From an uncultured Alphaproteobacteria bacterium (lineage in GTDB: Bacteria > Pseudomonadota > Alphaproteobacteria > Caulobacterales > Caulobacteraceae), in NCBI GenBank assembly GCA_963706385.1, contig OY970153.1, forward strand, positions 943,578 through 1,007,577: a DNA stretch of 64,000 nucleotides, written 5' to 3'. The position numbers and the translations under genes were made by a program. The notes beneath the pieces were generated by a model that ran no database searches, was not told the origin of the DNA, and saw only the letters and a program-made list of their open reading frames with translations. Below, one piece after another: positions 2,376 to 24,913 of this stretch; positions within the stretch are counted from its first letter, which is position 1, and each line of letters starts with the position of its first letter.

Positions 2376-3974
2376 ATGTCCTATTCCGAACAAACCGCCA
2401 AGCTCGGTCAGCTCATTAGGAGCAAGGGCGGCGCGTGGGACGGCATCCACGCTGATTCCGTCGCCCGGATGCGTCTGCAGAACCGGTTCCTGACCGGACT
2501 GGACATCGCTCGCCACACCGCCTCCATCATGCGCAAGGACATGGCGGCCTATGACGCCGATCCCGCCAACTACACCCAGTCTCTGGGCTGCTGGCATGGC
2601 TTCATCGCCCAGCAAAAGCTGATCGCCATCAAGAAGCATTTCGGCACGACCGAGCGCCGGTACATCTATCTGTCCGGCTGGATGGTCGCGGCGCTGCGCT
2701 CCCAGTTCGGCCCCCTGCCCGACCAGTCGATGCACGAGAAGACCTCGGTGCCGGCGCTGATCGAGGAGATCTACACCTTCCTGCGCCAGGCGGACGCCCG
2801 TGAGCTCGGCCTGCTGTTCCGCGACCTCGACGCGGCGCGCGCGGAAGGCGACGCGGTCAAGGAAAGGAAGGTTCAGTCGGCGATCGACCACTTCCAGACC
2901 CACGTCGTGCCAATCATCGCCGACATCGACGCCGGTTTCGGCAACGCCGAAGCGACCTATCTGCTCGCCAAGAAGATGATCCAGGCGGGCGCCTGCGCGT
3001 TGCAGATCGAAAACCAGGTCTCGGACGAAAAGCAGTGCGGTCACCAGGACGGCAAGGTGACCGTCCCGCACGACGTGTTCCTGGCCAAGGTCCGCGCCTG
3101 CCGTTACGCCTTCCTCGAACTGGGCGTCGAAGAGGGGGTCATCGTCACCCGCACGGACTCTCTCGGCGCCGGCCTGACGCAGCAGATCGCAGTCAGCCAT
3201 GAACCGGGCGACATCGGCGACCAGTACAACGGCTTCCTGGACTGCGAAGAGGTTACGGCCGACGCGGCGCACAACGGCGACGTGATCATCAACCGGAACG
3301 GCAAGCTGCTCCGGCCCAAGCGCCTGGCCTCGAACCTCTATCAGTTCCGCCCCGGCACCGGCGAAGACCGCTGCGTGCTTGACTGCGTCACCTCGCTGCA
3401 GAACGGCGCGGACCTGCTGTGGATCGAGACGGAAAAGCCGAACATCGAGCAGATCGCCGGCATGGTGGACCGCATCCGCGCGGTCGTTCCGAACGCCAAG
3501 CTGGCCTACAACAACTCGCCGTCGTTCAACTGGACGCTCAACTTCCGCCAGCAGGTCTACGACGCCTGGAAGGCGGTCGGCCGGGATGTGTCCGCCTACA
3601 GCCGCGACGCGCTGATGAGCATCGACTACGACGCGACCGAGCTGGGGGCCGAGGCCGACGAACGCATCCGCACCTTCCAGGCGGACGCGGCCAAGCGGGC
3701 GGGCATCTTCCACCACCTGATCACGCTGCCGACCTACCACACGGCCGCGCTGTCCACCGACAATCTGGCGAAGGACTACTTTGGTGATCAGGGCATGCTC
3801 GGCTACGTGGCTAAGGTCCAGCGCGAGGAGATCCGCCAAGGCATCGCCACGGTGAAGCACCAGAACATGTCGGGCTCCGACATCGGCGACGACCACAAGG
3901 AGTATTTCGCCGGCGAGGCGGCCTTGAAGGCGGGCGGCGCGAACAACACGATGAACCAGTTCGCCGCAGAATAG
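2376..3974 (+). CDS. aceA: Isocitrate lyase (long, about 530-aa form)
   Basis: MSYSEQTAKLG...RMRLQNRFLTGLDIARHTASIMRKDMAAYDAD...QSLGCWHGF and the catalytic K-x-CGHQDGK-type motif (EKQCGHQDGK). AAGGAA lies 8 nt upstream of the ATG at 2376. The track ORF starts 12 codons earlier, at 2340. Confidence 0.92.
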   Translation: MSYSEQTAKLGQLIRSKGGAWDGIHADSVARMRLQNRFLTGLDIARHTASIMRKDMAAYDADPANYTQSLGCWHGFIAQQKLIAIKKHFGTTERRYIYLSGWMVAALRSQFGPLPDQSMHEKTSVPALIEEIYTFLRQADARELGLLFRDLDAARAEGDAVKERKVQSAIDHFQTHVVPIIADIDAGFGNAEATYLLAKKMIQAGACALQIENQVSDEKQCGHQDGKVTVPHDVFLAKVRACRYAFLELGVEEGVIVTRTDSLGAGLTQQIAVSHEPGDIGDQYNGFLDCEEVTADAAHNGDVIINRNGKLLRPKRLASNLYQFRPGTGEDRCVLDCVTSLQNGADLLWIETEKPNIEQIAGMVDRIRAVVPNAKLAYNNSPSFNWTLNFRQQVYDAWKAVGRDVSAYSRDALMSIDYDATELGAEADERIRTFQADAAKRAGIFHHLITLPTYHTAALSTDNLAKDYFGDQGMLGYVAKVQREEIRQGIATVKHQNMSGSDIGDDHKEYFAGEAALKAGGANNTMNQFAAE

Positions 3975-4043
3975 GGCGTTTGCGACCGCTGGAAGCGCGA
4001 AGGCGAGACGCTGGAGCGGCGGCGACAATCATGGAGGCCCGCG

Positions 4044-5648
4044 ATGGCGGCAGACGATGTCTCGACCCTCTCCGCCGTTCAGCTCACCGGTCCGGCCGTC
4101 GCTCGCTCCGATGATATCCTGACGCCCGACGCCCTGACCTTTCTCGCCGCGCTGCATCGCCGGTTCGACCAGCGTCGGCGCGAACTGCTGGCGGCCCGTC
4201 AGACGCGCCAGGTAGCGTTCGACGCCGGCGAACGGCCCGATTTTCTGCCCCAGACCAAGGCCATCCGCGACGGCGACTGGCGCGTCGCGCCGATCCCCGC
4301 CGATCTGCTCGATCGCCGGGTCGAGATCACCGGCCCGGTCGACCGCAAGATGATCATCAACGCCCTGAACTCGGGCGCGCGGGTGTTCATGGCCGATTTC
4401 GAGGACGCCACCTCCCCGACCTGGGCCAATATCGTCGAGGGCCAGCTCAATCTGAAGGACCGCTGGGCCGGCCGGCTGAGCCATGTCGATCCCGGCTCGG
4501 GCAAGGCCTACCGGCTGAACGACAAGACCGCCGTGCTGATGGTCCGCCCGCGCGGCTGGCACCTGCCCGAAGCCCATGCGCGGGTCGACGGCGAGGTGAT
4601 GTCGGGCGCGCTGTTCGACTTCGGCCTGTATTTCTTCCACAACGCCAAGGCGGCCATCGCCCAGGGCTCGGGACCCTATTTCTACCTGCCGAAGATGGAG
4701 AGCCATCTGGAGGCGCGGCTATGGAACGACGTCTTCGTCCACGCCGAGGACGCGCTCGGGGTGAAGCCGGGGACGATCAAGGCCACCGTGCTGATCGAGA
4801 CCCTGCCCGCCGCGTTCGAGATGGACGAGATCATCTACGAGCTGCGCGAGCACATGGCCGGGCTGAACTGCGGGCGGTGGGACTATATCTTCTCGTTCAT
4901 CAAGCGCCTGCGCCGCCATCCCGAGGCGCTGACCCCCGACCGGGCGGTGATGGGCATGGGCTCGGCGTTCCTGGCCGCCTATTCGCTGAAGCTGATCCAG
5001 ACCTGCCACCGGCGCGGGGCCTTCGCCATGGGCGGCATGGCCGCGCAGATCCCGGTCAAGGGCGATCCCGCCGCCAACGAGGCGGCCTTCGCCAAGGTCC
5101 GCGCCGACAAGGAACGCGAGGCGGTCAACGGCCATGACGGCACCTGGGTCGCCCACCCGGACCTGGTCCCGGTGGCGATGGAGATCTTCGACCGGCTGAT
5201 GCCCGGACCGAACCAGTTGGACAGGCTGCGCGCGGACGTCGAGGTCTCCCGCGAGGACCTGTTGAAAGTGCACGAGGGCGCGCGCACCGAGCACGGCCTG
5301 CGCGAGAACATCCGCGTCGGCGTGCAGTACATCGAAGCTTGGCTACGCGGCCGCGGGGCCGTGCCGCTGTACAACCTGATGGAGGACGCCGCGACCGCCG
5401 AGATCAGCCGTGCCCAGCTCTGGCAATGGATCAAGCTGGCCGCCAGGCTGGACGACGGGCGCACGGTGAGCGCCGAACTGTTCGAGGCCCTGTTGGACCA
5501 GGAAATGACCGCGCTGCGCGGGGCGCTGACGCCGGAGGTCTACGACGCCGGCCGCTTCGCCGAGGCGATCGCCCTGTTCCGCGACATGACCTTGTCGGAG
5601 CGGTTCGAGGAATTCCTCACCCTGCCGGCCTACGCGATCCTGGAGTAG
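4044..5648 (+). CDS. aceB: Malate synthase A
   Basis: 534 aa, the size of the A-type enzyme, and conserved throughout (…FMADFEDATSPTW…, …GLNCGRWDYIFS…, …THDGTWVAHP…). GGAGG lies upstream of the ATG. The gene sits immediately after aceA. Confidence 0.92.
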   Translation: MAADDVSTLSAVQLTGPAVARSDDILTPDALTFLAALHRRFDQRRRELLAARQTRQVAFDAGERPDFLPQTKAIRDGDWRVAPIPADLLDRRVEITGPVDRKMIINALNSGARVFMADFEDATSPTWANIVEGQLNLKDRWAGRLSHVDPGSGKAYRLNDKTAVLMVRPRGWHLPEAHARVDGEVMSGALFDFGLYFFHNAKAAIAQGSGPYFYLPKMESHLEARLWNDVFVHAEDALGVKPGTIKATVLIETLPAAFEMDEIIYELREHMAGLNCGRWDYIFSFIKRLRRHPEALTPDRAVMGMGSAFLAAYSLKLIQTCHRRGAFAMGGMAAQIPVKGDPAANEAAFAKVRADKEREAVNGHDGTWVAHPDLVPVAMEIFDRLMPGPNQLDRLRADVEVSREDLLKVHEGARTEHGLRENIRVGVQYIEAWLRGRGAVPLYNLMEDAATAEISRAQLWQWIKLAARLDDGRTVSAELFEALLDQEMTALRGALTPEVYDAGRFAEAIALFRDMTLSERFEEFLTLPAYAILE

Positions 5649-5799
5649 GCCCCGTCGGCGCGATCAGGGACCGGTTGGAGACGCGGGGGCGGCGGCCGGC
5701 TTGACGCCGCGCCCTTGGTCGGGGCCTATGGCAACCGTTTAAATCAAAGCGCCGGTCGAACCGGCCGCTGCTGCAAAAGCCTTTCGAGGAAACCCCATT

Positions 5800-7878
<2,079 letters not shown>

Positions 7879-13104: not shown

Positions 13105-13209
13105 CGCCCGCTCCGCCGCGACTCGCCCGAAGGAAGGCCGCCCGACGCCCGTTGACCGTTCTGAACAAATAGGGAACATTGGCCGCCCCTTCACGCGCGG
13201 GAGCCGATC

Positions 13210-13902
13210 ATGGCAAGAATGTCGCGGGTCGTCATCCCTGGCGCGCCGCATCACGTGACCCAGAGGGGCAACCGGCGGCAGAAGACCTTCTTCCGCGAGG
13301 CCGACTACCTGTCCTATCTGCATCTGGCCGCCGAAGCCTGCAAAGCGGCCGAGGTCGAGATATGGGCCTACTGCCTGATGCCCAATCATGTTCACCTTAT
13401 CGCGGCGCCCGCGCGGGCCGACGCCCTGGCCCAGGCGGTGGGCGCGACCCATCTGCGCTACACCCGCCAGATCAACCGGCGCGAGCGCTGGAGCGGCTAT
13501 CTTTGGCAGGGACGATTCGCCTCCTTCGCCATGGACGAGGACTATCTGATCGCCTGCGCGCGTTATGTGGGCCTCAACCCGGTGCGCGCCGGACTGACAG
13601 CTCGGGCGATCGACTGGCCCTGGTCCAGCGTGCGCGCGCATGTCGAGGGGCGCGCCGATCCGCTACTGACGCCGGGACCGCTGGCCGCGCGGCTGGGTGA
13701 GCGCCTGCCGGGTTTCTTCGAGACGGATGTGCAAGAGGAAGGTCGCGAGGCCATCCGCCGCGCCTCATCCACCGGCCGTCCCCTGGGCGCCGCGGCCTGG
13801 ATCAAGGCCCTGGAAGCCTCGACCGGGCGGGCGCTGGCGGCTCCGCCCATGGGCCGGCCCGCGCGGAGGTCAAGCGATCCCGGCGCCGGGATCGGGGCCT
13901 GA
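13210..13902 (+). CDS. REP-associated tyrosine transposase (RAYT; IS200/IS605-like Y1 HUH transposase family)
   Basis: MARMSRVVIPGAPHHVTQRGNRRQKTFF...WAYCLMPNHVHLIA (HUH = HVH)...GYLWQGRFAS...ARYVGLNPVRAGL...WPWSS. These are characteristic RAYT/TnpA_REP motifs. Confidence 0.85.
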   Translation: MARMSRVVIPGAPHHVTQRGNRRQKTFFREADYLSYLHLAAEACKAAEVEIWAYCLMPNHVHLIAAPARADALAQAVGATHLRYTRQINRRERWSGYLWQGRFASFAMDEDYLIACARYVGLNPVRAGLTARAIDWPWSSVRAHVEGRADPLLTPGPLAARLGERLPGFFETDVQEEGREAIRRASSTGRPLGAAAWIKALEASTGRALAAPPMGRPARRSSDPGAGIGA

Positions 13903-20520: not shown

Positions 20521-20528
20521 CGGCATTG
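20521..20528. repeat. Left copy of the 8-bp target-site duplication (CGGCATTG)
   Basis: Identical octamer at 23141-23148, immediately outside the two terminal inverted repeats. Confidence 0.85.
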
Positions 20529-20592
20529 GGGAATTATCCCTTTGACAAAGTGACCACAAGCGCTAGTATGGCCCCATTGAATGAGGCCAGCC

Positions 20593-21531
20593 ATGAGCGA
20601 CTTTTCAAACCCGATCTTCCACGACGAGACCAAGGCCCGCGCATGGCTTGAAGCGCATCTGTGGCCGTATGGTCCGGTATGTCCGCATTGCACCGTCGTC
20701 GGCCACGCCACGGTGATCAAGGGCAAGACGGCGCGTGCTGGCCTGTATCAGTGTCAGGCGTGCGAGGAACAGTTCACGGTCACGGTCGGCACGATCTACG
20801 AGCGCAGCCACGTTCCGTTGAACAAATGGCTAGGCGCAACGCACCTCATGATGGCGTCGAAGAAAGGCATGAGCGCCCTTCAGATCGGTCGCATGATCGG
20901 CGTGACGTACAAAACCGCTTGGTTCATGTGCCATCGCATCCGCGAAAGCCTGCGCGAGACCAGTCCGACGCCGCTTGGCGGAAAGGGCAAGATCGTCGAG
21001 GCCGATGAAACCTATGTGGGCGGCAAGGACAAGAACCGTCACGCCTGGAAACGCAAGCACGTTCCAGGCCCCGGCGCGAAGGAAGCGGTGGTGTCGTTGG
21101 TTGAACGCGGCGGCCGTGTCCGCAGCGCCCACGTCAGCGACGTGAACAGCAAGAACCTGCGCTTGGTCCTGACCGAGGAAATCCACGCCGCCACCCACGT
21201 CATGACCGACACGGCCCGCGCCTATCCCGCGATCGGCGCCAAGTTCGCCCAGCACTCGATGGTCAATCACAGCATTGACGAATACGTGCGCGGCGAGGTT
21301 TCGACAAACACCGTAGAGAGCTATTTCGCCATCCTGAAACGCGGGATCGTCGGGACGTTCCATCATGTCTCGCCCCAGCACTTGAAGCGCTACGTCGGCG
21401 AGTTCGACTATCGCTACAACACTCGCACCGCGCTCGGTTACAGCGACGCCGAGCGCTTCGCTGAAGCCATCCCCGGCATCGTCGGCAAGAGGCTCACCTA
21501 TCGGCGGACTGGTGGACGCGCCGAAGCCTAA
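20593..21531 (+). CDS. IS1595-family transposase (N-terminal zinc ribbon plus DDE domain)
   Basis: MSDFSNPIFHDETKARAWLEAHLWPYGPVCPHCTVVGHATVIKGKTARAGLYQCQACEEQFTVTVGTIYERSHVPLNKW...VEADETYVGGK...TDTARAYPAI...HSMVNHS...EYVRGEVSTNTVESYFAILKRG. This is the classic ISXO2-like/IS1595 pattern. Confidence 0.9.
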   Translation: MSDFSNPIFHDETKARAWLEAHLWPYGPVCPHCTVVGHATVIKGKTARAGLYQCQACEEQFTVTVGTIYERSHVPLNKWLGATHLMMASKKGMSALQIGRMIGVTYKTAWFMCHRIRESLRETSPTPLGGKGKIVEADETYVGGKDKNRHAWKRKHVPGPGAKEAVVSLVERGGRVRSAHVSDVNSKNLRLVLTEEIHAATHVMTDTARAYPAIGAKFAQHSMVNHSIDEYVRGEVSTNTVESYFAILKRGIVGTFHHVSPQHLKRYVGEFDYRYNTRTALGYSDAERFAEAIPGIVGKRLTYRRTGGRAEA

Positions 21532-21555
21532 ACCGAAGCGAGGGAGGAAGAAGCC

Positions 21556-21786
21556 GTGTCCATCGAAATCCGAGAAACCATCGTAACGCCCATGGAAAAC
21601 GGTTACGGCGTTCAGCTTCGTATTTCTGACGTGACCAGCGAAGACGAATCCGCCGCATTTGTTCTTCGCCTGAGCGTTCAAATTCCAAAGACCGCGACAG
21701 ACCAGCTTTTCCTGATTGAACGCGAGGCGTTGGCGGCTGGAAATCGGGTTCTGCGCGACTTGATAGATGCTCGGAAAACGACATGA
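21556..21786 (+). CDS. Hypothetical 76-aa protein (transposon cargo)
   Basis: GTG start, 8 nt after GGAGG and 24 nt after the transposase stop. No recognisable motif. Confidence 0.45.
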   Translation: MSIEIRETIVTPMENGYGVQLRISDVTSEDESAAFVLRLSVQIPKTATDQLFLIEREALAAGNRVLRDLIDARKTT

Positions 21787-21881
21787 CGCAGGCTCTCTCA
21801 TCCGCTATTGTGTGAGCGGGTTGAGCGGCTGTGGCGGCCGGAACCTATCGACAGCGGCGGGGCTGCAACCCCGCCCGTCGT

Positions 21882-22217
21882 CTACCGCCCTATAATCTTT
21901 CCTGTCTTAGCGTCGTGCAAGGGGTCGTTTCCCCAATTCTGATTCTGCGGCGAATTTAGAAATTCGTCTGCTGTTGGGAGTTCTTTGGCGCCAACCGGAT
22001 TGCTGCAAAGTATCGAACCGGGGCCGCTTGAATAGCAATATTGCAGCGTTCCAGTGCGGGTATCGACCCGCCATACAGCGCCAGAATTTCCGGCCGGCGC
22101 AATCGCCCACGATCCCGCCGTGGGCAGTGATTTCGGGGGGGAAGGCATAGGCGCTGAAACGGGCGCCTTGTTGCAGGCCGCCAACAATAGAGCCGCCAAG
22201 AAAACGGGCGCTCTCAT
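21882..22217 (-). CDS. Hypothetical lipoprotein (transposon cargo)
   Basis: MRAPVFLAALLLAAC|NKAP has a signal peptide with an L-A-A-C lipobox. ATGA overlap with the upstream small ORF. Confidence 0.6.
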   Translation of the reverse strand: MRAPVFLAALLLAACNKAPVSAPMPSPPKSLPTAGSWAIAPAGNSGAVWRVDTRTGTLQYCYSSGPGSILCSNPVGAKELPTADEFLNSPQNQNWGNDPLHDAKTGKIIGR

Positions 22218-22378
22218 TTATCCCTCGGTCGCTTAGCTGGACTCGACTCCGCCTTCGGTTTGGCCTTCCGATGTATCGGGCCGTGCTTGGCGGCGGCGTC
22301 AATGGCGCGCTCGAACCGCTCCCAGCCATCCGGGCGCAGTTCGGGGGGCGCGTCGGTCCGATTGGGGGTGTTTGCCAT
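22214..22378 (-). CDS. Hypothetical small basic protein, about 54 aa (transposon cargo)
   Basis: MANTPNRTDAPPELRPDGWERFERAIDAAAKHGPIHRKAKPKAESSPAKRPRDK. Translationally coupled to the lipoprotein gene. The start is uncertain; alternatives go up to 22426. Confidence 0.4.
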   Translation of the reverse strand: MANTPNRTDAPPELRPDGWERFERAIDAAAKHGPIHRKAKPKAESSPAKRPRDK

Positions 22379-23054
22379 GGCTCGCGCACCTAAAGGGCGC
22401 CACACGTTCATGCCGACGCGGCGCATTGATCCTGTGCTCCAGAATGCCGTGAAACGACACGCGCGTCACGCCGGGGAAATCATCTGGTGCTGGAACATTC
22501 TCGCGGACCAACTCTACGAGCTGCTGGTCTCGTTGCTGATCGAAAAGAGCGCAGACCGGGCATGGGGGATCGCGTACGGAATCTGGACGCCGCTGCAAAG
22601 TGACGCCGCGAAGCGACAGATAATCCAAACCATCGCCGACGCGGTTCTAGCCAAGAATCCAGATCGCCTTGAAGCGGTGACGTGGCTCTTGCGCCAGACA
22701 AAAGACCTCGCCCAGCATCGGAACGATGTCGCCCACGTCGCGATTAAGTTCGCGAATGTAGGTGGCATCACCGGCAAGCCGCCCAAGATCATGCTGGTCC
22801 CCGCTGGCGCCTCTGCCAGCAAAGAGAGGGTGGAGCGCTTGCAAGATCACCCGACCGCGACGGTCTGGCGCCGCGCACGCGGCGATCTCATGGCGTTGTC
22901 GCGGTACGCCTTTCTTTTGTCGGCGAACATTCGAGGCGACGCTGCCGCTCCATGGCCTCGTAAGCCACGGTTGCTAGCCACTCCACCGAAGTCGAAGAAA
23001 GCCAGCCGAAAAGGTCGTCGTCGGCTGCCCAAAGCGCCGCCGCCCCCGCCTTAG
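22377..23054 (+). CDS. Hypothetical all-alpha protein with HEPN-like R-x4-H motif and Lys/Arg/Pro-rich tail (transposon cargo)
   Basis: Sequence ...LLRQTKDLAQHRNDVAHVAIKF... (R115-N-D-V-A-H120, nt 22719-22736), preceded and followed by predicted helices. C-terminus PRKPRLLATPPKSKKASRKGRRRLPKAPPPPP. The track start at 22260 would overlap the opposite-strand genes. ATG 22377 forms CCATGG with the divergent ORF start. Confidence 0.5.
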   Translation: MARAPKGRHTFMPTRRIDPVLQNAVKRHARHAGEIIWCWNILADQLYELLVSLLIEKSADRAWGIAYGIWTPLQSDAAKRQIIQTIADAVLAKNPDRLEAVTWLLRQTKDLAQHRNDVAHVAIKFANVGGITGKPPKIMLVPAGASASKERVERLQDHPTATVWRRARGDLMALSRYAFLLSANIRGDAAAPWPRKPRLLATPPKSKKASRKGRRRLPKAPPPPP

Positions 23055-23140
23055 CCATAGCTGCCGTTACTTTAGTCGCCGGCCTGTCACGCCCGCTCTG
23101 ATCTAGCTGTTGACGTGACTTTGTCAAAGGGATAATTCCC

Positions 23141-23148
23141 CGGCATTG
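23141..23148. repeat. Right copy of the 8-bp target-site duplication (CGGCATTG)
   Basis: Identical to 20521-20528. Confidence 0.85.
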
Positions 23149-23174
23149 ACAAGAACAAATCATGAACATATAGT
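23147..23174 (+). promoter_or_regulatory. Sigma-70-like promoter (TTGACA-16 nt-TATAGT) with a LexA box in the spacer
   Basis: TTGACA at 23147-23152 and TATAGT at 23169-23174. The spacer contains GAACaaatcatGAAC. The TTG of the -35 element is part of the transposon target duplication. Confidence 0.55.
23153..23167 (+). promoter_or_regulatory. Alphaproteobacterial LexA (SOS) box, copy 1: GAAC-N7-GAAC
   Basis: GAACAAATCATGAAC matches the GAAC-N7-GAAC / GTTC-N7-GTTC direct-repeat consensus described for alphaproteobacterial LexA. Confidence 0.65.
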
Positions 23175-23200
23175 GCCGATCTCACCATAAGGAGATCGCC

Positions 23201-23363
23201 TTGGCGCTGATCGAAAGAAGGTTCCAACTTGAGAACAAGGCTGGGGATGACCATCAGCGGCTGCCAGCACGGCAAACTGGAGTTGAAGCGTTGAGACGCG
23301 CCCGTTTGCCCCGGGTATCTACGACGACAACGATTCGCACAGTGAGGCGGTTACGTATTACCC
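23201..23363 (+). pseudogene. Truncated 5-prime fragment of a paralogue of the 23706..24464 gene
   Basis: It has the same GGAGATCG-N2-TTG translation start context as copy 2. The N-terminus LALIERRFQLENKAG resembles LPQNDQTFRLTNDVG. The reading frame runs straight into the antisense tRNA-Leu gene. Confidence 0.45.
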
Positions 23364-23450
23364 TGGTGCGGGCGGCCGGGGTCGAACCGGCACGGGGTTT
23401 CCCCCAACGGATTTTAAGTCCGTTGCGTCTACCAGTTTCGCCACGCCCGC
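23364..23450 (-). tRNA. tRNA-Leu (anticodon UAA), class II with long variable arm, CCA encoded
   Basis: Reverse complement: GCGGGCG TG GCGAAACTGGTAGACGC A ACGGA CTTAAAA TCCGT TGGGGGAAACCCCGTG CCGG TTCGACC CCGG C CGCCCGC ACCA. There is a 7-bp acceptor stem, a TTCGA T-loop and anticodon TAA. Confidence 0.93.
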
Positions 23451-23483
23451 ACTGTCGGCAGACATACCCCGCCCGCGCCGAAC

Positions 23484-23522
23484 TTTTAAGTCCGCTGCGT
23501 CCACCAATTCCGCCCCGTCCAC
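23484..23522 (-). pseudogene. tRNA-Leu 5-prime-half pseudo-copy
   Basis: TTTTAAGTCCGCTGCGTCCACCAATTCCGCCCCGTCCAC matches 23412-23450 of the intact tRNA at 32 of 39 positions. Similarity stops at the 3-prime side of the anticodon loop. The acceptor half (GTGGACG) does not match the intact gene. Confidence 0.6.
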
Positions 23523-23656
23523 CTGAAGCGGGCAGGGTTACAGGCGGAGCGCGCCCACTTCCAGCCCCGCCGCGCCGCCGCGTCCAGCGGGTCCGGCGTG
23601 ATGCGCTCGACCCCGGCCGCGGTCAGGGCGGTCCGGCGATCGAACAACCTCTATAA

Positions 23657-23671
23657 GAACAAATCACGAAC
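23657..23671 (+). promoter_or_regulatory. Alphaproteobacterial LexA (SOS) box, copy 2: GAAC-N7-GAAC, followed by TATAAT
   Basis: GAACAAATCACGAAC, then TATAAT at 23673-23678. The 26-nt core AAGAACAAATCA(T/C)GAACATATA(G/A)TGC is shared with copy 1. Confidence 0.65.
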
Positions 23672-23705
23672 ATATAATGCGTCAACATACCGCCAGGAGA
23701 TCGAT

Positions 23706-24464
23706 TTGCCCCAGAACGATCAGACTTTTCGGCTGACGAACGATGTTGGAAGCTTGGGATTGAGGTGCGCGGCGACGGGCGTTTCGCTCGCGGGCGTGCC
23801 GCTGCTACGTAAGACCCTCGTGGGATTGGAACCCCGGCCGACCGAAGAAATCGGCGCGCTGTTGGAAGAGGCCTATGGCCAGCCCGTCGATCCCGCCAAT
23901 GTGTCGCCCGGACTCGATGTCATCGCTCAGGCGCTCAATCGGGGAGATCTCGGACGGGCGATGATCGCCGCGGTACACCTAAGACTTCCCGAATTGAGCT
24001 GGGACGGTGCGGCGCGCATCGCCAAGGCGCACGGCGGCTTGACCAAATATGACCCCGACGAACCGCGGGACGAGCGCGGACGATGGACGACCGATGGGGC
24101 TTCGGGCCCGAACATGGCAAGTTCGCCCGGAGCCTTCCGTCACGACTCCCGGCCTGACGTCATGACGCCGATCCCGGTCGCCAACCGCCGTCTGCCCGAC
24201 GACGATCCCGCCTCCATCGTGTGCAACGTGGCGACCAGGCAATGTCAACTCAGCGCCCTGGACGACAAGACCAGACCATACTTCGACAGCTGCTGGAAGG
24301 CGGAAAACGCTTGCGAGCTTGTCGTATCCGCAAGTCGATCAAGCCCAGAACAACCGTTCTACGTTATATATCCAGACAGGACGGTTGTATCCATTTTGGA
24401 CGGAACCGCCATCATAACGCACATCGCCGGCACGAGACTGCAGCGTCCCTTTAGCGGGCGGTGA
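23706..24464 (+). CDS. Hypothetical protein (about 252 aa) downstream of LexA box 2
   Basis: TTG start, 5 nt after AGGAGA. The track ORF start at 23598 lies upstream of the putative promoter. It contains the motif YDPDEPRDERGRWT and a C-terminal region with four Cys. The composition looks AT-richer by eye. Confidence 0.55.
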   Translation: MPQNDQTFRLTNDVGSLGLRCAATGVSLAGVPLLRKTLVGLEPRPTEEIGALLEEAYGQPVDPANVSPGLDVIAQALNRGDLGRAMIAAVHLRLPELSWDGAARIAKAHGGLTKYDPDEPRDERGRWTTDGASGPNMASSPGAFRHDSRPDVMTPIPVANRRLPDDDPASIVCNVATRQCQLSALDDKTRPYFDSCWKAENACELVVSASRSSPEQPFYVIYPDRTVVSILDGTAIITHIAGTRLQRPFSGR

Positions 24465-24514: not shown

Positions 24515-24913
24515 ATGATTTATCGCAACTTTCTCACGTTCACGATGTCGATCGCGATAGCATTTCTCGCCGCATCAGGAGGGTTTACAATGAACAACGA
24601 CGTAGAGAACGGCAATGATTTTCCGCCGATCTCACCAGCCGGGGAAACGGCTGCACCGAGCAACCCCGCATTTGTAAATCAATGTCTGTCACAACTGAAT
24701 TCCTTGTCCGGGATGGGAAAAATCACACCCGGCCCCAACCTGCTGACCAAGAACAATCGATGGGGATCCGTTTTCCGCGCCGATTTTTCGATTGGAAATG
24801 AAAAAACCGGTCCACTTAGAAATAGATTGGTCTGCTGGAAGCAGAAAGATGGGCAAATCAGCATCATGCTTGCAATTGGTCAAGCTGTGCCGGCCCTGAA
24901 TAGGGCCAACTGA
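24515..24913 (+). CDS. Hypothetical small exported or membrane-anchored protein (132 aa)
   Basis: N-terminal hydrophobic segment MSIAIAFLAASGGF. AT-rich codon usage compared with its surroundings. No family recognised. No clear RBS. Confidence 0.4.
   Translation: MIYRNFLTFTMSIAIAFLAASGGFTMNNDVENGNDFPPISPAGETAAPSNPAFVNQCLSQLNSLSGMGKITPGPNLLTKNNRWGSVFRADFSIGNEKTGPLRNRLVCWKQKDGQISIMLAIGQAVPALNRAN

Follow-up and report, generated by a model that had tools for sequence, protein, structure and literature searches.

Does an insertion sequence (IS) that lies next to a LexA-type operator lie there by chance? An IS in a 64,000-nt stretch of DNA from an uncultured member of the Caulobacteraceae raises this question (contig OY970153.1 of assembly GCA_963706385.1, positions 943,578 to 1,007,577; we call the whole stretch the window). 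The IS belongs to the IS1595 family and carries passenger genes, and just past its right end is a promoter whose spacer holds a direct repeat of the LexA-box type. We propose that the element is an intact transporter IS and that its clade inserts with the target-site duplication 4 bp upstream of operators of the form GAAC(A/G)AA-N4-GAAC. We put the probability of this reading at roughly 85%.

Insertion at a fixed distance from LexA-type boxes

The first-pass annotation of this locus, which was made from the sequence alone, described a LexA-box promoter at the right end of the element, with GAAC-N7-GAAC inside its spacer. It also pointed out that the TTG of the -35 hexamer lies in the duplicated octamer, so that the -35 is kept. 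We agree on all of this, and deleting the element with one copy of the repeat restores the promoter, but we count a spacer of 17 nt instead of 16. The annotation saw where the box is, but it missed that this position reflects a clade-wide preference with a fixed 4-bp register.

The register was first seen when we aligned the flanks of the window element and three relatives (L003, L004, and L002, which is in the opposite orientation): in each, the box lies exactly 4 nt past the duplication. The related set was drawn from contigs of close relatives and from 80 loci in a one-genome-per-species scan, and it comprises 56 elements that have both inverted repeats (IRs) and an 8-bp duplication. An exact GAAC-N7-GAAC box is found at offset 4, counting outward, for 10 of the 56 elements, and one more element has a box with one mismatch there. 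None of the 56 has an exact box at any of the 39 remaining offsets, and none has one in the GTTC orientation. The background density of boxes is 2.3e-5 per position and orientation (in 1.64 Mb of fetched sequence), and the binomial P value for 10 of 56 is ~1e-33.

Other samples gave the same offset. An independent, unbiased scan of metagenomes with the terminal 18 nt of the IR yielded 115 unique ends; at offset 4, six of these have an exact box and three a near-exact one. One more box-adjacent case (L085) came from counting all boxes in the fetched sequence. As a prospective test, we used five new relatives. Three of these (L211, L213, and L219, with 76–77% transposase identity) all have an exact box at offset 4; the two without a box are L217 (71%, with a different IR) and L214 (73%).

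In a neighbor-joining tree of the transposases, the clade that includes the window element has 16 members: 13 with an exact box (P ~2e-54), two with a one-mismatch box, and one with none. A second small clade (L055 and L082) is box-adjacent as well, and the remaining clades use other targets. Because the preference follows the transposase phylogeny, it appears to be encoded by the element.

In total, there are at least 23 distinct box-adjacent sites, with the element in both orientations (the box adjoins the right IR, or IRR, in 15 cases and the left IR, or IRL, in 6) and with one register and one polarity. When the sites are aligned, information is present only in GAAC(A/G)AA-N4-(G)GAAC-AT; the octamer that becomes duplicated shows no conservation. 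At L011 and L014, TTGAC is several nt farther upstream than in the window and the 4-nt spacing to the box is kept, so the register follows the box and not the -35. Single metagenome-assembled genomes (MAGs) can have several elements at different boxes: L011 and L013 share one MAG, and L014 and L082 share another.

Several observations weigh against our reading. L214 belongs to the clade and is not box-adjacent, and neither are L017 and L194, which have the same IR and are outside the clade. Many of the metagenomic matches to the 18-nt IR are at AT-rich sites without a box. Just 28 of 120 metagenomic loci encode a relative of the transposase, and at four there are IR pairs 240–520 bp apart. Most of the relatives come from MAGs, in which IS flanks can be misassembled, although the junctions should be correct because the duplications on both sides are identical. 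We did not recover an empty orthologous site, but only one locus with an orthologue of TauE (the gene on the element's left) was fetched, and the genome collection was not searched with the empty-site string. The fetched locus lacks synteny with the window (yjdM comes after TauE, and there is no tRNA-Leu), and the orthologues nearest to the window's TauE are 75–80% identical. The occupied boxes are predicted LexA operators, as judged from the motif, the position in the promoter, and the neighboring genes. And the suggestion that one passenger gene encodes a HEPN-type RNase (discussed below) draws on a motif of a few residues and on PADLOC, whose only match, to Csx1, is weak (E = 0.024). The box preference is strong, not absolute.

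Alternative explanations

A single locus cannot separate chance from preference, so we considered that insertion might be random, with a LexA box as a chance neighbor and no preference beyond what is usual for IS1595. This would fit with the other clades, which lie in unrelated sequences, and with the many IR matches in AT-rich DNA. However, at least 23 sites share the same 4-bp register and polarity, no exact match occurs at another offset, and P is ~1e-33 or lower, which makes random insertion highly improbable. Copies of one ancestral insertion would hardly explain the sites either, as their duplications, flanks, and downstream genes differ. Another idea is that insertion is nearly random and that selection spares only the harmless insertions upstream of SOS promoters. 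The sites are intergenic and the duplication preserves the promoter, so the cost of these insertions should be small. But selection would permit many intergenic positions and distances; it would not confine insertions of both orientations to a single flank of the box at exactly 4 bp. Also, the register is kept even though the distance from the -35 to the box at L011 and L014 differs from that in the window, and the window site is a promoter remnant that has no gene. We consider selection to be very unlikely. Given the exact register, the one-sidedness, the use of both orientations, and the occupation of a gene-less remnant, we infer that the targeting is mechanistic. If instead the box and the promoter were part of the element, with the true right end farther out, then a box beside many copies is what we would expect to see. 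Yet the IR and the box are always separated by the 8-bp duplication, and the box can be on the IRR side or the IRL side. Furthermore, the sequence past the box and the downstream genes vary among the sites, and boxes of this type also occur without an element, two of them in the window (at 13163 and 23657). A carried box can practically be dismissed.

It might also be that the direct repeat is not a LexA operator, but a site for another regulator or a sequence that only the transposase reads. The Caulobacter SOS box is given as GTTCN7GTTC, and mmcB as SOS-regulated (PMC9578287; bioRxiv 10.1101/2025.01.26.634973). The direct repeat in the window, GAACAAATCATGAAC, has the form GAAC-N7-GAAC, which equals the published SOS box of Caulobacter and other alphaproteobacteria. 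It overlaps the core promoter: it is in the 17-nt spacer of TTGACA-17-TATAGT, between the -35 and the -10, as for a repressor site. The genes after occupied boxes include those for MmcB-like proteins (L011 and L014), RadC (L082), a UDG-superfamily protein (L108), and a BrnT/BrnA pair of toxin and antitoxin (L030). Several of the sites precede a known SOS gene (mmcB) or a repair gene (radC or UDG). On the other hand, not every downstream gene belongs to the classical SOS set (one is an MmeI-like fragment, and others code for unknown proteins), and the targeted boxes show extra conservation, as GAAC(A/G)AA and a trailing AT. In the window, what the box heads is just a shortened copy of the 23706 gene, whose function is not assigned. 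LexA binding to the occupied boxes is a prediction from sequence. Overall, a site for something other than LexA seems unlikely, and we will refer to the boxes as predicted LexA operators.

At one box-adjacent locus, L219, the flank opposite to the LexA box has a run of opposite-strand genes (3536-5892), among them one for an SOS-response-associated peptidase (SRAP).

How the clade might choose its targets

Insertion is always 5' of the asymmetric box, with the element in either orientation. The staggered cut is made within the -35 or immediately ahead of it, so the duplication rebuilds this hexamer. With the operator and the -10 untouched, the whole SOS promoter is preserved, and the consequence for the host is mild. 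The likely benefit for the element is a cheap intergenic landing site, with many per genome.

There are two routes by which the box might be recognized. The DNA-binding region at the N terminus of the transposase might recognize the operator DNA itself, or the transpososome might dock on LexA that is bound to the operator. We consider direct reading and docking to be roughly equally likely. The fuller proposal, that the clade picks its targets by docking on operator-bound LexA via the transposase or via a small conserved protein of the element, is one that we can offer only tentatively. If it is true, then the whole SOS regulon would offer landing pads, and the state of DNA damage in the cell would be coupled to insertion and perhaps also to excision at a later time. 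It would also mean that a one-protein bacterial IS is tethered by a global repressor, as Ty3 is tethered by TFIIIB. Pfam and NCBIfam searches of the transposase and the passenger proteins detected neither a LexA DNA-binding domain nor an S24 peptidase domain, and there are no GAAC-N7-GAAC boxes inside the element. We also considered whether the box might be a look-alike of the IR, and rejected this: the likeness, by eye, is confined to the TTGACA that is common to the IR and the -35.

The element and its history

The features of the locus are listed in Table 1. The first-pass annotation gave base-precise ends, with 26-bp IRs that differ by one mismatch and a perfect 8-bp direct repeat, CGGCATTG, on either side; we arrived at identical coordinates. 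The likeness of IRL to IRR extends imperfectly to 39 nt (87%; to 20566 on the IRL side), and the 26-bp IR has just two matches in the window with up to three mismatches, with 0 expected (100 shuffles). The flanking repeat reads as 11 nt (CCCCGGCATTG) merely because IRR ends in CCC. The ends of the element are GGGAATTAT, and between the IRs there are four open reading frames (ORFs) besides the transposase, as the annotation had stated. Terminal inverted repeats with an 8-bp duplication are as expected for IS1595, and the 56 relatives have them too. Since different element ends in other copies would have spoken against these boundaries, it matters that the relatives carry the same terminal sequence.

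Table 1. Coordinates in the window of the element, its flanking repeats, its genes, and the promoter at its right end
Feature	Position	Strand	Remarks
Left copy of the 8-bp target-site duplication, CGGCATTG	20521-20528		Perfect direct repeat
Whole IS element	20529-23140		2.6 kb; IS1595 family; intact, with passenger genes
IRL, GGGAATTATCCCTTTGACAAAGTGAC	20529-20554	+	Same terminal 18 nt present in relatives
Promoter-like TTGACA-16-TAGTAT in IRL	20542-20569	+	Faces the transposase gene; consensus match only
Transposase gene, 312 aa	20593-21531	+	Possible alternative start at 20581; N-terminal zinc ribbon and DDE domain
76-aa ORF	21556-21786	+	Directly after the transposase gene; good ribosome-binding site; gene call on an independent assembly
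111-aa predicted lipoprotein	21882-22217	-	Lipobox MRAPVFLAALLLAAC; start overlaps the stop of the 54-aa gene
Conserved 54-aa protein	22214-22378	-	PDGWxRFExAVDAA..GPxHR and a basic tail
225-aa protein	22377-23054	+	Divergent from the 54-aa gene; HRNDxAH; predicted all-alpha fold
IRR	23115-23140	-	25/26 identical to IRL
Right copy of the duplication, CGGCATTG	23141-23148		Last 3 bases are the TTG of the -35 hexamer
Sigma-70-like promoter TTGACA-17-TATAGT	23146-23174	+	11/12 consensus positions; intact
LexA-type box, GAACAAATCATGAAC	23153-23167	+	4 nt past the duplication; fills the 17-nt spacer
Promoter remnant	23175-23235	+	Shine-Dalgarno, TTG start (23201), and ~11 codons like the start of the 23706 gene
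tRNA-Leu(taa)	23364-23450	-	Beyond the promoter remnant

Viewed as a transporter IS of the IS1595 family, intact and present once, the element is ordinary, as cargo-bearing IS1595 elements are already known. Elements of this family with passenger genes have been named transporter IS (Siguier, Gagnevin & Chandler 2009, as cited in PMC4611040 and PMC3129680).

The annotation also described the element as recently transposed. This recency is deduced from the perfect duplication: the element is single-copy, the closest relative of its transposase is 85% identical, and recent movement cannot be shown because no second copy exists. The exact 312-aa transposase was found on one 3.24-Mb contig and on one short contig of the same locus, and an exact look-up of the 316-aa form (start at 20581) gave no match. 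As we did not find a second copy of the element, we could not compare the cargo that travels with different copies. DNA and protein searches of a plasmid collection gave only relatives of at most 52% identity, none with an IS name. No orthologous locus turned up that has the cargo ORFs without the IRs, a finding that would have spoken against the annotation's reading, although no empty site was recovered for the window.

The GC content of the element (~60%) is below that of the adjoining DNA (70–75% in the TauE gene on its left), so the element was probably acquired horizontally, by a Caulobacterales-like alphaproteobacterium. The host's TauE is best matched (75–80%) by proteins from Phenylobacterium, Caulobacteraceae, and Sphingomonas.

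Presumably, the element belongs to the ISNwi1-type subgroup, for which the ISfinder consensus has ends of GGnnATTAT, along with extra ORFs inside the IRs.

Transposase and passenger genes

Profile matches to both the N-terminal zinc ribbon and the ISXO2-like DDE domain confirm that the transposase is from the IS1595 family, as the annotation had proposed: Zn_ribbon_IS1595 (PF12760, E = 4.6e-11), DDE_Tnp_IS1595 (PF12762, E = 5.5e-37), and the NCBIfam model transpos_IS1595 (NF033547, E = 1.3e-56, with 191.9 bits versus a cut-off of 75). In an alignment of 21 relatives, D138, D206, E242, and K249 are invariant, with the lysine seven residues past the glutamate. By their position, D138, D206, and E242 are the putative catalytic residues.

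The 56 related elements are all 1.9–6.2 kb long, so all of them carry extra genes. In the first-pass annotation, the four further ORFs were viewed as cargo. All four are present, but they are not all arbitrary passengers: two of them, which encode the 54-aa and 225-aa proteins, are recurrent parts of this IS group.

The 54-aa protein is present in 46 of the 56 related elements (by ORF clustering), and a library of 1.8 billion proteins has 207 representative clusters of it. It has no annotation, and a profile search of PDB gave no solved relative. A probable role for the 54-aa protein is that of an accessory factor for transposition, given that almost all members of the group have its gene. It is unlikely to be a factor for target specificity, because it is also found in clades with other targets.

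The gene that is divergent from the 54-aa gene varies across elements, and often encodes a protein of 200–260 amino acids with RNxxxH or RDxxxH. In the window, this partner is the 225-aa protein. Its R115-N-D-x-A-H120 motif (Rx4H) is invariant in nine homologues and has the Rx4-6H form of the HEPN motif. The AlphaFold model of this protein is all-alpha (pLDDT of 72.5), and comparing the model to PDB with Foldseek gave no match with E < 1. There is no Pfam match above threshold, and a profile search of PDB gave nothing relevant. Along with the Csx1 match and the all-alpha model, the motif suggests that the 225-aa protein may be a HEPN-type RNase carried as cargo, and we have not filed it as HEPN. 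The start codons of the 54-aa and 225-aa genes overlap on opposite strands (CCATGG; the 54-aa gene and this overlap span 22214-22379), which leaves no intergenic space for a promoter. IRR contains an inward-facing TTGACA, which could transcribe the pair of genes for the 54-aa protein and the lipoprotein, antisense to the 225-aa gene.

As for the other two ORFs, no homologue of the 76-aa ORF was found. L014 has a small exported protein that is similar to the predicted lipoprotein and in the same position; by eye and unscored, they have a common motif, VWRVDTRTGTLQYC / VYRLDRWTGRIDYC. Overall, searches of Pfam, NCBIfam, PADLOC, and PHROGs gave nothing significant for the function of the cargo. 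The cargo of other elements includes a DUF3800 protein and a DUF1828 protein with an unannotated partner (these two were checked with Pfam), as well as, by eye, ORFs that resemble DNA methyltransferases and a pair of ParB-like and Dam-like proteins. When such regions are annotated, the recurrent 54-aa gene and its variable partners should be considered part of the mobile element and not of the host.

Comparison with other mobile elements

Other transporter IS of the IS1595 family are like the window element in having one transposase with a zinc ribbon and a DDE domain, an 8-bp duplication, extra genes, and a length of 2–6 kb. Most simple insertion sequences are thought to choose their targets loosely. 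To our knowledge, operator-directed choice of targets has not been described for the IS1595 family, and the 54-aa gene is not part of the family's description. Full-text literature searches gave no reports of an IS or transposon that targets LexA boxes; subscription journals, ISfinder, and TnPedia were outside their reach, and a prior description may exist.

Several mobile elements with precise targets are known. Tn7 uses TnsD to insert at a fixed distance to one side of the conserved attTn7, downstream of glmS, which is harmless to the host gene. It has a dedicated target-selector protein, one site per genome, and a fixed orientation. In contrast, the window clade has many sites per genome (the operators of a regulon), uses both orientations, and has no target-selector protein that we could identify. 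Tn5053 and Tn402 are known as "res-site hunters": they are DDE transposons that use several transposition proteins, together with the target's resolvase, to insert in or close to res sites of plasmids. As may also hold for the window clade, the preferred site is defined by a DNA-bound regulatory or recombination protein of the target replicon, but the window clade consists of one-transposase IS that insert at predicted chromosomal LexA operators.

The IS elements IS1397 and ISKpn1 insert strictly at a defined position in palindromic hairpins, the repetitive extragenic palindromes (REP, or BIME). They share with the window clade a strict position within a short repeated motif, regulatory or structural, that is scattered over the chromosome. 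However, the window clade targets the direct-repeat operator of a repressor, and it is a different subclade of the family that shows REP-like behavior. In eukaryotes, the retrotransposons Ty3 and Ty1 are tethered to Pol III factors and insert a fixed short distance upstream. By analogy, the window clade would share this logic only if LexA is the tether.

Here, one clade of one-transposase IS appears to read the operator of a global repressor with base-pair precision. This would be a compact natural system for site-specific targeting by a DDE transposase, and it would explain the places in alphaproteobacterial genomes at which such elements, with the genes they carry, build up. It might also link the SOS regulon to the spread of mobile elements. 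In practice, occupied sites could be used as a marker for LexA operators in uncultured bacteria.

Other targets in the family

While comparing flanks, we noticed other apparent target classes. In L019, L023, L033, L036, L048, L057, L063, L066, and L084 (and also in L111 and L172), the duplication is CTnnnGGG or similar. These clades insert in the loop and the 3' stem of CCCTCC...GGAGGG hairpins, which are REP-like or terminator-like palindromes. This is another site preference, the second in the group. In L025, L026, L027, L029, L039, and L046, the duplications are AT-rich and nearly palindromic (CTAnnTAG), which would be a third class.

We also noticed pairs of 18-nt IRs that are 240–520 bp apart, without a transposase, and resemble miniature inverted-repeat transposable elements (MITEs). 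These are in L098 (103-616), L103 (528-770), L144 (790-1274), and L166 (76-463), mostly at AT-rich sites without a LexA box.

In L007 (2400-4965; also in L008-L010), 4 nt separate the duplication from the IRL of a neighboring member of the family. In the right flank of L021, the IR of a neighbor abuts the duplication. Insertion beside family IRs at L007 and L021 suggests that these elements are attracted to IR ends as well.

The surroundings of the insertion site

The promoter beside the element and the remnant after it lead into no intact gene. Together they make up a truncated copy, ~90 bp long (about 23150-23240), of the promoter and the 5' end of another gene, at 23706-24464; that gene has a separate box (23657-23671). 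The two copies of the LexA-box promoter, the ribosome-binding site, and the TTG start (23141-23240 and 23645-23745) bracket the tRNA-Leu(taa) gene. Just past this tRNA, at ~23470-23520, is an apparent fragment of a second tRNA-Leu (the 5' half). The duplicated promoters around the tRNA look like a scar of integration or rearrangement. We do not regard a 151-aa ORF (23201-23656) as real: it crosses the tRNA-Leu on the antisense strand, and its likeness to a true gene is limited to the first ~11 codons.

The gene at 23706-24464 encodes a 252-aa protein, behind a LexA box, without a match in Pfam, PADLOC, or PHROGs. In L013, a homologue of this protein comes after the box that the IS occupies. 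Downstream of the window's gene, a stretch of 50% GC has a 132-aa ORF (24515-24913). We speculate that the two might be an SOS-induced pair of the toxin/immunity type.

The other unoccupied box in the window, at 13163-13177 (in the region 13146-13902), is a good SOS-type box (TTGACC-N5-GAACAAATAGGGAAC). Downstream of it is a 230-aa ORF that, by eye, resembles an IS200-like (Y1) or REP-associated tyrosine transposase (MARMSRVVIPGAPHHVTQRGN...).

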